From: Shigella phage B2
Sequence record: OM858838
Direction: 5' to 3' (one strand)
Length of the DNA: 64,000 nt
Every line of letters starts with the position of its first letter. Position 1 is the first letter of the stretch. Below are positions 45,076 to 52,564 of this stretch, one piece after another. The position numbers and the translations under genes are program-made. Under the pieces are notes generated by a model that saw only the letters and a list, made by a program, of their open reading frames with translations, searched no databases and was not told the origin of the DNA.

Positions 45076-45090
45076 AGCACCTTCGGTGCT
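45076..45090 (+). promoter_or_regulatory. TTC-loop hairpin (vRNAP-type promoter candidate) before tRNA cluster
   Basis: agcacc-ttc-ggtgct, no T-run after it. Confidence 0.35.
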
Positions 45091-45106
45091 CTCTTTGGAA
45101 AGTTTT

Positions 45107-45178
45107 GGTTCTATGGTCCAGTGGAAAGGATATTCCCCTGTCACGGGAAAGGCCCGAGTTCAATTCTCGGTAGAACCG
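45107..45178 (+). tRNA. tRNA-Asp (anticodon GTC)
   Basis: Hand-folded cloverleaf: acceptor ggttcta/tagaacc, D gtcc/ggat, anticodon stem ttccc/gggaa loop ctGTCac, T ccgag-ttcaatt-ctcgg, CCA encoded. Confidence 0.8.
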
Positions 45179-45185
45179 CCAATTA

Positions 45186-45260
45186 CAGGATATAGCTCAA
45201 GTTGGTTAGAGCACTCGGCTCATAACCGAGAGTGTCCAGGTTCGAAACCGGGTGGAACCA
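45186..45260 (+). tRNA. tRNA-Met-like element (anticodon CAT), acceptor stem unresolved
   Basis: Good D arm (gctc/gagc) and anticodon arm (ctcgg-ctCATaa-ccgag); the 5' end does not pair with the 3' tggaacc-a-cca in my fold. Confidence 0.35.
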
Positions 45261-45270
45261 CCAAATAATG

Positions 45271-45355
45271 AAGAGAGTCGTATAGCGGCCCAATACGCCA
45301 CCCGAACGTTACGACTAGTACGGAGAACACGCAGGTTCGAATCCTGCCTCTCTTC
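45271..45355 (+). tRNA. tRNA-like element without canonical anticodon arm (possible pseudo-tRNA)
   Basis: Perfect 7-bp acceptor aagagag/ctctctt, D arm gtat/atac, T arm gcagg-ttcgaat-cctgc; the 33-nt middle has no 5-bp/7-nt-loop hairpin. Confidence 0.3.
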
Positions 45356-45361
45356 ACAAAT

Positions 45362-45435
45362 TGTCTCATAGCTCAGTAGGTCAGAGCGTTCCCCTGATAA
45401 GGGAAAGGTCACTAGTTCGATTCCAATTGAGACAA
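45362..45435 (+). tRNA. tRNA-Ile (anticodon GAT)
   Basis: Acceptor tgtctca/tgagaca + a + CCA, D gctc/gagc, anticodon ttccc-ctGATaa-gggaa; T stem has two mismatches. Confidence 0.6.
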
Positions 45436-45579
45436 CCATCCAATAGATTACAGTTCGTATCTCTTAGGGGAATACACTTGTAATTGCGGCCCGATAGGAA
45501 AGGGTAATTTCTCGACGATGGGAGTAGACCATTGACTGTTTGGAATAGACAACTGACGCTGTGAACGAGAACAGGAACA

Positions 45580-45666
45580 AGATGAGTCGTATAATAGGCA
45601 AATACAATATTCATGTTTCGCTATAGGCATGGAGAAGGAACGTGAGTTCGAGTCTCACCTCATCAA
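45580..45666 (+). tRNA. tRNA-like element, paralog of 45271-45355
   Basis: Shares agaNgag-tc-gtat...atac 5' half and a ttcgagt T arm (gtgag/ctcac); 1:72 mismatch and no canonical anticodon arm. Confidence 0.25.
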
Positions 45667-45766
45667 TAGTTCTTATCAGGGATTACTTACTACTATATAT
45701 CATACATTACCTCGCCTGGTGTGTTGGTGTTACCTCGGTAGATAAGTAATCCACTAATAAGAATTT

Positions 45767-45849
45767 GGAAGATTCCGCTCAGTGGTGGGCAATCCGGTTT
45801 GAACCCGGAGGTGCTGGTAACGGTAGGGGTTCGACTCCTCAATCTTCCG
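45767..45849 (+). tRNA. tRNA-Ser (anticodon TGA), type II
   Basis: Acceptor ggaagat/atcttcc + g + CCA, anticodon tccgg-ttTGAac-ccgga, long variable arm. Confidence 0.7.
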
Positions 45850-45858
45850 CCAATATTT

Positions 45859-45931
45859 GATAGGATAGCTAACTCGGTAAAGCGGCAGACTGTTAATCTG
45901 CGACATTAGGGTTCAAATCCCTATCCCATCG
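45859..45931 (+). tRNA. tRNA-Asn (anticodon GTT)
   Basis: Anticodon gcaga-ctGTTaa-tctgc, T taggg-ttcaaat-cccta, acceptor with one A.C mismatch, CCA encoded. Confidence 0.75.
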
Positions 45932-46099
45932 CCAAACTTGCAGGTAACTCTGCAATCCGTGACCAGTCGGTATGTTTATTAGTATGTAAAAGGCTGGGCT
46001 TCCTGCCTCTCATAGCCATACTCTTAAATGAATAACTGGTAGTCCAGCCAAGCGCACGAAGATGGGGACCCTCACCATCGGACAAAACGAGGGTACTAA

Positions 46100-46173
46100 G
46101 CATCCTTAGCTCAGTTGGATAGAGCAGTAGCCTTCTAAGCTATTGGTCACTGGTTCGAATCCAGTAGGGTGTA
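46100..46173 (+). tRNA. tRNA-Arg (anticodon TCT)
   Basis: D gctc/gagc, anticodon gtagc-ctTCTaa-gctat, T actgg-ttcgaat-ccagt, acceptor with two G.U pairs, CCA encoded. Confidence 0.8.
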
Positions 46174-46177
46174 CCAA

Positions 46178-46250
46178 GCTCACTAAGTTCATATGGGTGA
46201 ACGCCTGCCTTGTAAGCAGGATGAACGCGGTTCGATTCCGTGGGTGAGCA
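46178..46250 (+). tRNA. tRNA-Thr (anticodon TGT)
   Basis: Acceptor gctcact/ggtgagc, D gttc/gaac, anticodon cctgc-ctTGTaa-gcagg, T cgcgg-ttcgatt-ccgtg, CCA encoded; unusual A at position 8. Confidence 0.75.
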
Positions 46251-46255
46251 CCAAT

Positions 46256-46338
46256 GGGAGTATGGTGAAATCGGTAGACACAAGGGATTTAAAATCCCTC
46301 GGCTTATAGCTGTACGAGTTCGAGTCTCGTTACTCCCA
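46256..46338 (+). tRNA. tRNA-Leu (anticodon TAA), type II
   Basis: Acceptor gggagta/tactccc + a + CCA, anticodon aggga-ttTAAaa-tccct, long variable arm, T acgag-ttcgagt-ctcgt. Confidence 0.85.
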
Positions 46339-46363
46339 CCAAATTAATACAAGGAAAATCCCA

Positions 46364-47336: not shown

Positions 47337-47964
47337 TAAACTCAGATTGTCGTTTTACTACGACGATTGGGATAGCAAGCTGGCTCTGCTTAAACCAGCG
47401 CATAGTAATGAGAGCATTTGCAGGGGCGATGGATTGATGTTATTTAACCATGCGTGTAAGTGTTCTCTTTACTATGCTGCCATAGTAACCCGAAGATTGC
47501 TTTCCTTAGAGGAAGCAGAGTTTAAACAGGTATATCCTGTCCTGTATTGAAGGTGTAACAACTGAATATACCAGAGTACTAGAACTCTGTTACCGAACTC
47601 AGGGAGTTGCTGGCCTAACCAGCTTAACATCCTATCAATGAGTACACTTGATTGAGGTCAGAAGATGAAATGAAGCTTCTGTAAAATGAATCCACAGAGT
47701 GTACTCTTTGATAGTTTTCGTATGCGATTATGCGGTTTTTTAAAAACGAACCATAAAACATAAATGCAAACGATGATGTTGTTCTGATGGCGGCTTAACA
47801 GCCTATAAATCAGTGAGGTATTCCAGTTCCTCATAACAGAATCTGGCGCACTGGCCCGGTGTGATTAATAATGGGCAACCAATATCTCTTTAAGTGTATT
47901 GAATCAGTATATTTACAGAGATACGCGCCAAGTATATCTCACTTCCGAATACGTTGATTATTTT

Positions 47965-47991
47965 GCCCATCTCCCTTGATGGGCTTTTTTT
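47965..47991 (+). terminator. rho-independent terminator-like hairpin
   Basis: gcccatc-tccctt-gatgggc followed by T7. Confidence 0.6.
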
Positions 47992-48085
47992 ATCCCAATC
48001 CCCGCCTTACGCTTATGCGCTTCCATCGCTCACTACGTTCGCTCGGAGCGCTTCGCTTCAGGCTAGTCGTAGGAGACTCTTAAGA

Positions 48086-49348
48086 ATGTCTACCCCTTGT
48101 GAAAGATTAGGTTATAAAGAAGGAATGCAGTTCACTCTCGTCAACGATGATGTTGATGGATTGAGTGCTGGTGATACCCTCTGGCTTCATAGTGATGATG
48201 GTTCACATAATCCTGAATTCCGTGATACTGAAAAAGTAAACGATGATACTGAAACCTACTACATCGATTTAAACTGTGTAGCTCGTTGTACCGAAGATGA
48301 AACACTCGCCTATAACCGTGGCTTAAGAGAAGGAGATATCCTTCAGATGGTTATGGATGATGATGGTGAGGAAGCCTATGAAGGCGATATCATCACATTC
48401 ATCAAAGATGATGGAGATACCTGTCCTCAATTTGAAGTACAGAAGGATGGTAATAAGGCTTACCTGTACCTCTCTCATGTAGGTGGATTAGAACCTAAAG
48501 TAGGTCGTAAGGTTCGTGTAATCCATAACTGTACTGGTGGGTTCTCTTCAGGTACTGAAGGAACTATTGTTGATATCTGTTCTGATGGGGACTATTTGAT
48601 TGCAGCACGTGGAGATACCATGTATCACCATGCTGACTCCTGTATTGTCTTCGGCTATGCAGATGACGAATCCTCTGACAGTAAAGACCCTGAACCAGTA
48701 AAAGAAGATTACCCAACTAAACCTGCTTCTGAATGGAAACAAGGTGATAGAGGTATTGTTCGTGGTCAGCAAGATAATGACCCACATAACTTCCAGATTG
48801 GTGAAGAGATTACCTTTGAACGGGGAAGAGACTCAGAAAGAGGTATCTTCCGAGGTACTAAGTACACTTCTACTCAAAACATTCAATATGATTTGATTGA
48901 AGTAGTCTCTATTGAACCGTACCCAATCACTGTTACTAAAGTATCCAAAGAGAATCCTGTAGCCTGTATCAAAGCTATACGTGCTGCTACTGGGTTAGGT
49001 TTGTATGAAGCTAAACAAGCTTATGACTTTGTTAGAGATAACGAAGAACCATACAGCTTACAGATAATCATCTCTAAAGGTGAGTTAACTCATCTCTTTA
49101 CTGAAGCAGGTATCGAATACTTCTTTGATAGACAAACTGAAGTATCTGGAACCAAACCAACAGTAATCATCTGTGATGAGTTAGCTGATACTTCTAAGAA
49201 GTATAAATACTTCATTGATGGTGATTCCATTGAAGTAACATTAGTTGGATACTTCGAAGGTGAACCCATCTGTGCTTACAAAGACAGATGGGGTGATATT
49301 CAAACCTTCGTAGCTAAACAATCACTTCTGGTATCTGATGATGACTAA
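48086..49348 (+). CDS. acidic protein with ribosomal L7/L12 C-terminal-domain-like segment
   Basis: Start set at ATG 48086 after TAGGAG RBS (track 47954 start runs through the terminator); segment PVACIKAIRAATGLGLYEAKQ and following ISKGELTHLFTEAGIEY resemble E. coli L7/L12 CTD (recalled as [26 protein letters not shown]). Confidence 0.5.
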   Translation: MSTPCERLGYKEGMQFTLVNDDVDGLSAGDTLWLHSDDGSHNPEFRDTEKVNDDTETYYIDLNCVARCTEDETLAYNRGLREGDILQMVMDDDGEEAYEGDIITFIKDDGDTCPQFEVQKDGNKAYLYLSHVGGLEPKVGRKVRVIHNCTGGFSSGTEGTIVDICSDGDYLIAARGDTMYHHADSCIVFGYADDESSDSKDPEPVKEDYPTKPASEWKQGDRGIVRGQQDNDPHNFQIGEEITFERGRDSERGIFRGTKYTSTQNIQYDLIEVVSIEPYPITVTKVSKENPVACIKAIRAATGLGLYEAKQAYDFVRDNEEPYSLQIIISKGELTHLFTEAGIEYFFDRQTEVSGTKPTVIICDELADTSKKYKYFIDGDSIEVTLVGYFEGEPICAYKDRWGDIQTFVAKQSLLVSDDD

Positions 49349-49517
49349 ACTACCTGGCATTGGTACTAAACCTTTGTTTGTAATTGATGGCCTCAATCCT
49401 GTTGAGGTCTCTATTGTCGCCCACTACAAAGACAAAGCTGTATTCATCTACTTAACCAAAGATAAGTTTGAACGAGTAGATATGGCTACAGCTCCCTGCT
49501 TCAGGAACCAAAAGTAA
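49341..49517 (+). CDS. small ORF (58 aa), possibly translationally coupled
   Basis: ATG 49341 precedes the upstream stop at 49346-49348 by 5 nt. Confidence 0.25.
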   Translation: MTKLPGIGTKPLFVIDGLNPVEVSIVAHYKDKAVFIYLTKDKFERVDMATAPCFRNQK

Positions 49518-49519
49518 TC

Positions 49520-49762
49520 ATGGTAAAAGACCCACTTGCTCTCTCATTAGAAAAACGTAAGCTATGGAGAAGGGCTGCTACTCGATGGTTAGAACTATTA
49601 ACATCCAGAGACTTAACAGCTACTGAGATGGATTGGGTCTTAGCCAGAAGAGACTATTGCACTAGAAAGACTAAGAGAGCAGAACCTCTTATAGATTCTG
49701 GAGTAATACACGGAGCACCTAACTCATTTATCTATGATTACTTTGGCTTTCTCCGTAAATGA
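49520..49762 (+). CDS. hypothetical protein
   Basis: 80-aa ORF followed by a 9-bp hairpin at 49766-49788. Confidence 0.35.
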   Translation: MVKDPLALSLEKRKLWRRAATRWLELLTSRDLTATEMDWVLARRDYCTRKTKRAEPLIDSGVIHGAPNSFIYDYFGFLRK

Positions 49763-50360: not shown

Positions 50361-50373
50361 GAGTCTTCGACTC
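50361..50373 (+). promoter_or_regulatory. TTC-loop hairpin + GTGGAG (vRNAP-type promoter candidate)
   Basis: gagtc-ttc-gactc then ta-gtggag, ~45 nt upstream of 50419 ORF. Confidence 0.4.
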
Positions 50374-50418
50374 TAGTGGAGCAATGGTGCTCTACTTAAT
50401 CATGATTAGGAGTATGTT

Positions 50419-51205: not shown

Positions 51206-51544
51206 ATGGGTAGAGCAAAAGAGAGAATTCACATGGCTATCATCCATTCAATCATTGGTTCTAATTCAGAACCATCAACAGTAGTAGTCAACAAGTATAA
51301 GGAACCATACGATGTATATATCGGTAGAGGTAGTCTATGGGGAAATCCTTATACAGTTCAAGAACATGGCAGAGAACTATGCATTGCAATGTATGAGCAA
51401 TACATACGTGCAAGACTACATCAAGAACCTGATTTATATCTTCAATTACTTGAGCTTAAAGGTAAGAAGCTAGGCTGCTTCTGTAAACCTAAACCATGTC
51501 ATGGTGATGTATTAGTTAGACTCATCCAAGAGTACTCAAACTAA
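51206..51544 (+). CDS. conserved-domain protein (YIGR...WGNP...CxC...CHGD motif), start uncertain
   Basis: DVYIGRGSLWGNPY...GKKLGCFCKPKPCHGDVL; true start may be the internal Met at 51233 because the hairpins abut 51206. Confidence 0.45.
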   Translation: MGRAKERIHMAIIHSIIGSNSEPSTVVVNKYKEPYDVYIGRGSLWGNPYTVQEHGRELCIAMYEQYIRARLHQEPDLYLQLLELKGKKLGCFCKPKPCHGDVLVRLIQEYSN

Positions 51545-52453: not shown

Positions 52454-52470
52454 ATCACCGTCTTCGACGG
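52454..52470 (+). promoter_or_regulatory. TTC-loop hairpin + GTGGAG (vRNAP-type promoter candidate)
   Basis: caccgtc-ttc-gacggtg followed immediately by gtggag. Confidence 0.45.
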
Positions 52471-52506
52471 TGGTGGAGTTCTCCCTTAAGTTCTCCTTCT
52501 CCTGTA

Positions 52507-52521
52507 AGAGCGACTTCGTCG
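52507..52521 (+). promoter_or_regulatory. TTC-loop hairpin + GGTGGA (vRNAP-type promoter candidate)
   Basis: agcgac-ttc-gtcgct followed by ggtggaa; ~45 nt upstream of 52565 ORF. Confidence 0.45.
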
Positions 52522-52564
52522 CTGGTGGAATAATCCAATTCAATTAACTATCGAGGTAATTATC

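Follow-up and report, generated by a model that had tools for sequence, protein, structure and literature searches.

Shigella phage B2 gp56 carries a bL12 C-terminal domain as a cassette within a scaffold of acidic beta-barrels

Homologues of the ribosomal stalk protein bL12 (L7/L12) are known from several phages. Stand-alone forms, such as those of Dinoroseobacter phage DFL12phi1, Ralstonia phage RSB3 and roseophage vB_DshP-R7L (gp15), carry a Ribosomal_L12 domain that makes up most of a protein of about 90-107 amino acids (aa); several come from N4-like phages, and these genes, located in the early/middle region, count as recent acquisitions from the host. Seven phages that encode a Ribosomal_L12 domain were listed by Mizuno et al. 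(2019, Nat Commun 10:752; PMC6375957), and two of these are FSL SP-058 and FSL SP-076, where the protein has 418 aa (HHpred probability 96%). In their account, the residues for contacts with uL11, EF-G and EF-Tu are conserved, and the homologue in phage Pollock lacks the L12 domain. When the SP-076 protein was expressed in E. coli, one of its peptides, VNDDTETYYIDLPYVAR, was detected by mass spectrometry in salt-washed 70S/100S ribosomes (PMC6375957). Here we analyzed a 64,000-nucleotide (nt) stretch of Shigella phage B2 DNA (record OM858838), called the window below, in which the corresponding gene (48086..49348, + strand) encodes gp56, an acidic protein of 420 aa. Unlike the stand-alone phage homologues, gp56 holds the bL12 C-terminal domain (CTD) as a cassette within an unrelated scaffold.

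The proteins of FSL SP-058 (AGF88198) and FSL SP-076 (AGF88397) are orthologues of gp56, with 90-91% aa identity over 100% of the length and the same domain order. Their genes are syntenic with the B2 gene, in a position after the tRNA cluster, and their GenBank records already bore the note 'COG0222 Ribosomal protein L7/L12'. B2 gp56 is 2 residues longer than these at the C-terminus and is substituted at about 10% of positions. Because a 90%-identical orthologue was described and partly tested in 2019 (PMC6375957), the domain in B2 gp56 is a rediscovery, and the bL12-domain identity of this protein family has been known since then. The present analysis adds the boundaries of the cassette, the architecture of the barrels, purifying selection and recombination, and a residue-level map.

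We found that residues 275-353 of gp56 are a complete, true homologue of the bL12 CTD. In a Pfam search with the full protein, Ribosomal_L12 (PF00542) was matched with E=2.9e-5 and 24.7 bits, residues 283-313 aligning to profile positions 5-34. The isolated B2 module scored 26.7 bits, over the PF00542 gathering cutoff of 25.9 bits, and 17/17 module homologues matched PF00542 when each was scanned on its own. A phmmer search of gp56 against all PDB sequences placed E. coli L7/L12 first (E=0.002). With a profile built from the 17-sequence family, the top 15 PDB matches were all bL12 (E=1.3e-9). Positions 10-70 of this profile aligned to positions 6-64 of the 69 in the CTD, so that helix 6 and the EAG turn (the ISKGELTHLFTEAGIEY segment) are covered. 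Over 65 aligned residues, the B2 module and the E. coli CTD are 40% identical.

We utilized AlphaFold2 (AF2) to predict the structure of gp56 from a 46-sequence alignment; the full-length model had a mean predicted local distance difference test score (pLDDT) of 82.9. It contains a folded CTD core at residues 279-347 (48920..49126, + strand) with a strand at 279-285, helices at 291-302 and 306-319, a strand at 323-327, a helix at 331-341 and a strand at 344-347, corresponding to the order b1-a4-a5-b2-a6-b3. The module modeled alone kept this b-a-a-b-a-b topology, with a pLDDT of 92.5 and a predicted template modeling score (pTM) of 0.82. Because the five beta-barrels dominate the full-length model, a Foldseek search with it returned only tandem KOW/SH3/Tudor proteins, and a separate model of the module was needed. 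Searched against the PDB, that model retrieved 3j9y_7, 1rqs, 1rqu and 1ctf on top, all of them E. coli L7/L12 CTD, and its Foldseek alignment to 1ctf gave template modeling (TM) scores of 0.61/0.69, a root-mean-square deviation of 2.9 Å and 37% identity. Next in the list came bL12 chains from Thermotoga, mitochondria and other sources, and then ClpS, the N-degron adaptor of ClpAP. ClpS, which appears from rank 8, shares the fold class with the module at 4-15% identity, and sequence profiles pick bL12, never ClpS. An earlier note on this DNA had proposed the L7/L12 likeness from the letters alone; Pfam, the family profile, AF2 and Foldseek now give it both a profile match and a matching fold.

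Both peptide strings quoted in that note occur in gp56, PVACIKAIRAATGLGLYEAKQ at residues 291-311 and ISKGELTHLFTEAGIEY at residues 329-345, and its ORF of about 420 aa at 48086-49348 is present as a 420-aa acidic protein, with an isoelectric point of 4.4. The note had put the domain near the C-terminus; it in fact spans residues ~275-353 of 420, and a disordered linker and then a fifth beta-barrel still come after it. Relative to cellular bL12 (rplL; PF00542; PDB 1ctf), with which it shares the fold at TM 0.6-0.7, the gp56 domain sits inside a multi-barrel protein of 47 kDa that is encoded outside any rplJL operon. Its helix 5 is ~5 residues longer (YDFVRDNEEP), and gp56 has neither the N-terminal dimerisation/uL10-binding domain nor the Ala/Gly hinge of bL12. 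When that N-terminal domain and hinge (PF16320) were sought in gp56, PF00542 was the only Pfam match at E<=10, and the AF2 model contained no helical domain outside residues 291-341, its first 275 residues being beta-barrels.

Helices 4 and 5 of bL12 form a conserved site of positive charge to which IF2, EF-Tu, EF-G and RF3 bind (PMC6753160). The counterpart of this surface in gp56 is the helix 4-loop-helix 5 segment at residues 291-313, PVACIKAIRAATGLGLYEAKQAY (48956..49024, + strand), which maps to E. coli K65-V87. We counted conservation over 27 family modules, numbering residues as in E. coli and giving the B2 residue in brackets. V66 (V292), A67 (A293), I69 (I295), G79 (G305), L80 (L306) and K84 (K310) are invariant, and K70 (K296), E82 (E308) and R73 (R299) are kept in 26/27, 24/27 and 22/27 modules, respectively. 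The A71 equivalent, A297, is also invariant or nearly so among the 27 homologues. V66, I69, K70, R73, L80, E82 and K84, reportedly the factor-site residues of bL12 (Kothe et al. 2004; Helgstrand et al. 2007), have equivalents that are mostly invariant over the 27 modules in position A together with 3 in position B. K65 (P291) and K81 (Y307) are replaced, mostly by P and by Y or A, respectively. The earlier note had described a phage copy of the CTD fused to a large acidic domain, and this description stands: the scaffold is non-ribosomal, and, judged from the alignment, the docking-site residues of helices 4 and 5 are likely retained.

Outside the module, the AF2 model of the scaffold is all-beta, with five SH3/KOW-like beta-barrels. 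Barrels B1 (residues 1-62) and B2 (63-130) span 48086..48475 (+ strand), were predicted with pLDDT >90 and carry a net charge of -11 each. They are followed at 48476..48910 (+ strand) by barrel B3 (131-193), a disordered acidic linker (194-210; pLDDT <50 at residues 196-207) and barrel B4 (211-275). Beyond the module, a disordered linker (354-370) leads to the C-terminal barrel B5 (371-420; together 49145..49345, + strand), where the pLDDT drops to about 30 over residues 349-370 and recovers to 72-81 in B5. Barrels B1 and B2 are a sequence duplication (hhalign probability 98.8%, E=5e-17), and barrel B2 shows weak profile similarity to B4 (42%) and to B3 (15%). Conservation within the family is highest in barrels B1, B2 and B5, with B5 foremost.

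In the full-length Foldseek search, the KIN17 tandem SH3-like domains (2ckk, 9coj), Spt5 KOW6-7 (5ohq) and the SETDB1 Tudor domain were matched with probability 1.0. The small, five-stranded barrel fold is shared with these tandem barrels (in KIN17, the C-terminal tandem) at a TM to target of 0.65-0.71 over ~115-130 columns. In a viral structure library, the full model matched, apart from its own family, only uncharacterized phage proteins. None of KOW (PF00467), SH3 or Tudor was matched by the barrels in Pfam at E<=10, and their family assignments, PHROG 26483 and 13152, are both of unknown function. The protein as a whole has a net charge of about -42, and all of its sub-domains are net negative. 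Since the barrels are strongly acidic and not basic, nucleic-acid binding is not implied.

We analyzed the distribution of the module among relatives of gp56. The cassette (residues 275-353; 48908..49144, + strand) coincides with an exact in-frame indel of 237 nt: in a metagenomic orthologue (P0010, locus L002), exactly 237 nt are missing between flanks that are 90% identical in DNA, and the borders of the indel show GAAGTA..TCT microhomology. In the family alignment, the module is also cleanly missing from homologues of ~340 aa, including that of Escherichia phage Pollock. The gene as a whole is 89-94% identical in DNA to those of Salmonella phages vB_SenP_UTK0001/0002, FSL SP-058, FSL SP-076, SP154, As2 and S5; the classified relatives among these belong to Schitoviridae, Humphriesvirinae, genus Ithacavirus, and are N4-like podophages. 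Across six Ithacavirus orthologues, the median pairwise ratio of nonsynonymous to synonymous substitution rates (dN/dS) was 0.15 for the module vs. 0.25 for the remaining gene, so purifying selection acts on the module no less strongly than on the rest of the protein. Between B2 and UTK0001, the module DNA has 0 differences in 237 nt and the rest of the gene has a synonymous divergence (dS) of 0.29, which is a signature of recombination.

Two architectures retain the module: B4-L12-B5, found in Ithacavirus and Pylasvirus, and B4'-L12-B4-B5, found in proteins of the Salmonella phage TR2 type. The latter (P0045, P0046 and P0069; ~500 aa) have the order B3-B4'-L12-B4-B5, compared with B3-B4-L12-B5 in the former. 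The B2 module is 46% identical to the Klebsiella-phage module, 25-31% identical to the TR2-type module and 40% identical to the E. coli CTD. On these sequence comparisons, an independent acquisition of the TR2-type module is possible. As the module follows a B4-type barrel in both architectures, there may instead have been one ancient acquisition with later rearrangement.

Beyond phages, the module profile matches 2107 representatives at E<=0.001. Many of these are 200-950 aa long and contain 3-6 tandem L12-CTD-like copies; they form a large class of non-ribosomal bacterial proteins (among them P0047, P0049, P0053 and P0060), some with a zinc ribbon or HEAT-like repeats. Like gp56, such tandem-repeat proteins (e.g. 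P0047, P0053 and P0060) place full CTD-like units outside bL12; they differ from it in having multiple copies and other partner domains, in keeping K65 and in being, as far as seen, non-phage.

We estimate at roughly 45% the probability that the bL12 CTD of gp56 acts in trans on its usual partners, the translational GTPases or uL11 at the GTPase centre, by tethering or competing. We infer the binding partners of gp56 and its effect on translation as follows. The protein would have a non-structural, accessory role in an N4-like phage (Humphriesvirinae) and be built as a string of five acidic SH3/KOW-like barrels. Its helix-4/helix-5 surface would bind EF-Tu, EF-G, IF2 and RF3 through their G or G' domains, or else bind uL11 in the GTPase-associated centre. 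The acidic scaffold would thereby be drawn to the translation machinery, or the host stalk would meet a competitor, and protein synthesis during infection might be tuned as a result. A role in translation is favored by the tRNA cluster and a tmRNA-tag-like RNA that lie directly upstream of the gene. Also in favor of the trans-acting role are the identity of the domain, the helix 4/5 residues that are kept, the purifying selection on the module, its retention in both architectures and the SP-076 peptide in washed ribosomes (PMC6375957). All four major translational GTPases are recruited by the bL12 CTD, so that displaying a free copy of it on a scaffold could give the phage a simple way to act on host protein synthesis, and phage copies of ribosomal-protein domains suggest direct viral manipulation of the translation apparatus. 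The residue map makes this binding hypothesis directly testable, with the natural module-less orthologues as controls.

Several observations weigh against this trans-acting role. The isolated CTD binds factors weakly, and the gp56 module has lost 2/5 basic residues of the bL12 site (K65 to P and K81 to Y) and has a net charge of -4. Module-less orthologues with 90%-identical flanks, together with Pollock, indicate that the core function of the protein is independent of the module. bL12-CTD-like domains are common in non-ribosomal bacterial proteins, so the fold alone is no proof of a role in translation. The published experiments add to these points. The strep-tagged SP-076 protein failed to co-purify ribosomes (PMC6375957). 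Furthermore, the sole peptide of this orthologue found in the ribosome fraction, VNDDTETYYIDLPYVAR, which is present in the SP-076 sequence and not in B2, maps to barrel B1, outside the L12 module.

A less probable explanation is that the L12-CTD fold serves only as a small, generic domain for interaction or spacing whose partners lie outside translation, the real activity residing in the beta-barrel scaffold. The many representatives matched by the module profile that have 3-6 tandem copies joined to unrelated regions are in line with this, as are the orthologues that do without the module and the higher conservation of barrels B1, B2 and B5. However, conservation in the phage family falls on residues of the bL12 factor-binding site. 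The published detection in the ribosome fraction (PMC6375957) and the translation-related neighborhood of the gene also argue against this explanation.

It is unlikely that gp56 is a viral ribosomal protein proper, built into the host 50S stalk, where it would rival cellular bL12, as Mizuno et al. (2019) read the orthologue. The retained CTD fold and factor-site residues suit this explanation, and so does the SP-076 peptide, found in 70S/100S ribosomes washed at high salt (PMC6375957). Nevertheless, the N-terminal domain and hinge, which provide dimerisation and binding to uL10 helix 8, are missing, so that gp56 is unlikely to be a regular stalk subunit. The tagged orthologue pulled down no ribosomes (PMC6375957), gp56 is a highly acidic protein 3.5 times as large as bL12, and close relatives dispense with the module. 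The earlier note had offered insertion into the ribosomal stalk as one outcome; on the Pfam and AF2 results, insertion by the normal route is improbable. The other outcome it offered, sequestration of the translation GTPases, is a plausible hypothesis.

We regard as very improbable that gp56 is an anti-defense decoy, a soluble stalk mimic that titrates host effectors using the bL12 CTD, such as Cami1-type CARF-RelE nucleases. Cami1 is captured by the ribosomal stalk, and the structural matches of the module include PDB 8phj, cA4-bound Cami1 on the 70S ribosome with bL12. The patchy occurrence of the cassette and its recombination between B2 and UTK0001 are typical of accessory or counter-defense modules. 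Against this, a literature search on a bL12 decoy role found nothing, and such defense is not known to be common in Shigella or Salmonella hosts. Lastly, a chance or low-complexity match without any L12-like domain could be argued from the full-protein Pfam score, which falls 1.2 bits short of the gathering threshold, with an alignment limited to profile positions 5-34, but it is refuted, and its probability made negligible, by the family profile matching nearly the whole CTD in the PDB, the PF00542 match of every homologue scanned, and a confident AF2 module model whose nearest Foldseek neighbor is the L7/L12 CTD.

Upstream of the gp56 gene, the window contains a tRNA cluster (45107-46341), a 202-aa ORF with no assigned function and a gap of 750 bp. 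In the tRNA cluster, Rfam gave an extra tRNA-like match at 45188-45260 (+ strand; 37.7 bits) that ARAGORN did not list. The gap holds a tmRNA-tag-like structured RNA (47697-47852, + strand), also seen at loci L003 and L009-L015. Its tag frame (47766-47798), GCA AAC GAT GAT GTT GTT CTG ATG GCG GCT TAA, encodes ANDDVVLMAA; it has no start codon, is preceded by an invariant AUAAAU and places its stop codon within a small hairpin. Tag variants include ANEEMYLAVA, ANDNTFLAVA and ANDNVFLAVA, the stop codons differ and the downstream stem covaries. About 180 nt of the element are present in 682 phage records from unrelated groups, namely Gamaleyavirus, Deseoctovirus, Ackermannviridae, Felixounavirus and Aeromonas phage pIS4-A, and also in lambdoid prophages of 137 E. 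coli genomes. The copies that we inspected are mostly unannotated, and several adjoin tRNA genes.

Rfam gave only sub-threshold tmRNA matches to this element, and ARAGORN found no tRNA-like domain in 9 loci. In Marshall and selz, a 7/7 'acceptor' pairing can be formed, which competes with an apparently perfect local hairpin of ~13 bp read by eye in the alignment; a complete tmRNA is therefore not claimed. A literature search on a tmRNA-like element of this kind found no paper, and the element may be more novel than the bL12 module in this region.

An intrinsic terminator, found by a terminator scan, lies directly upstream of the gp56 gene (47965..47984, + strand) and shows compensatory stem changes across 7 phages. 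The stretch from the terminator to the ATG start codon is a GC-rich, nearly invariant leader specific to gp56 (47990..48085, + strand). In 18/18 phage records found, this leader of ~90 nt has 83-99% nucleotide identity, and in other genera the proteins are only 40-58% identical. It is single-copy within the window. The gp56 ATG is preceded by TAGGAG at 48070-75, and the octamer CTCACTAC (48029-48036) can pair with the Shine-Dalgarno sequence GTAGGAG (48069-48075), a pairing that RNAalifold also makes. Translational control is therefore possible. All leader pairs in the RNAalifold structure are invariant, and covariation thus neither confirms nor rejects this anti-Shine-Dalgarno structure.

Taken with these upstream elements, the cassette might be a soluble mimic of the stalk head that captures translational GTPases or Cami1-type effectors and belongs to a right-end 'translation island' with the tRNA cluster, the tmRNA-tag-like RNA and the leader that may hide the Shine-Dalgarno sequence. 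We hold this to be speculative, with a low probability. If it were true, the phage would regulate its stalk mimic at the level of translation, much as ribosomal-protein operons are regulated.

Mapped onto the window, the linear UTK0001 record ends at ~50332, so that the gp56 gene lies ~1 kb short of the right end that is canonical for N4-like genomes. Past that point, a hairpin-promoter scan detected three hairpins with a TTC loop at 50361-50381, 52456-52478 and 52509-52530 (+ strand), with stems of 5, 7 and 6 bp, respectively. In these hairpins (at 50366, 52463 and 52515), the loop reads GAA on the template strand, the stem sequences differ in a compensatory manner and (N0-2)GTGGAR follows. 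This arrangement fits the architecture of N4 virion RNA polymerase early promoters. The three are thus candidate N4-type promoters of this polymerase that would mark the start of the left-end early region. The earlier note had called gp56 an early protein. N4-type early genes occupy the left-end region and follow hairpin promoters that the virion RNA polymerase reads. The label is an assumption that finds no support in the location of gp56 near the right end, behind its own terminator and leader and with the candidate early promoters downstream. No N4-type hairpin promoter was found between the terminator (47965-84) and the gp56 ATG, all three candidates lying downstream of the gene. A sigma-70 promoter scan gave sites no more numerous than in shuffled sequence. 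A fourth hairpin, at 45082 (45077-45091, + strand; AGCACC TTC GGTGCT), has a 6-bp stem, is placed 16 nt before the first tRNA gene and has no GTGGAR box.

The gp56 translation matches the entry 'hypothetical protein B2_gp56 [Shigella phage B2]' at 100% identity, and the B2 copy bears no further annotation. It matches PHROG 26483 with E=1.9e-267, a family without assigned function. A published structural description of phage B2 (PMC11654681) leaves gp56 unmentioned. The window also holds a 3741-aa virion RNA polymerase ORF and a terminase. At the end of the gp56 gene, the ATG of a 59-aa ORF (49338..49517, + strand) overlaps the coding sequence, so translational coupling is possible; Pfam and PHROG gave no match for this ORF. 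Two genes past gp56, an 80-aa ORF (49520-49762, + strand) encodes a PerC transcriptional-activator domain (PF06069, E=1e-11; PHROG 10396). In the early region, a DUF4326 protein is encoded at 51206-51544 (+ strand; E=4e-26), and the equivalent region of TR2 has two copies (L008 5170-5418 and 6676-6984).

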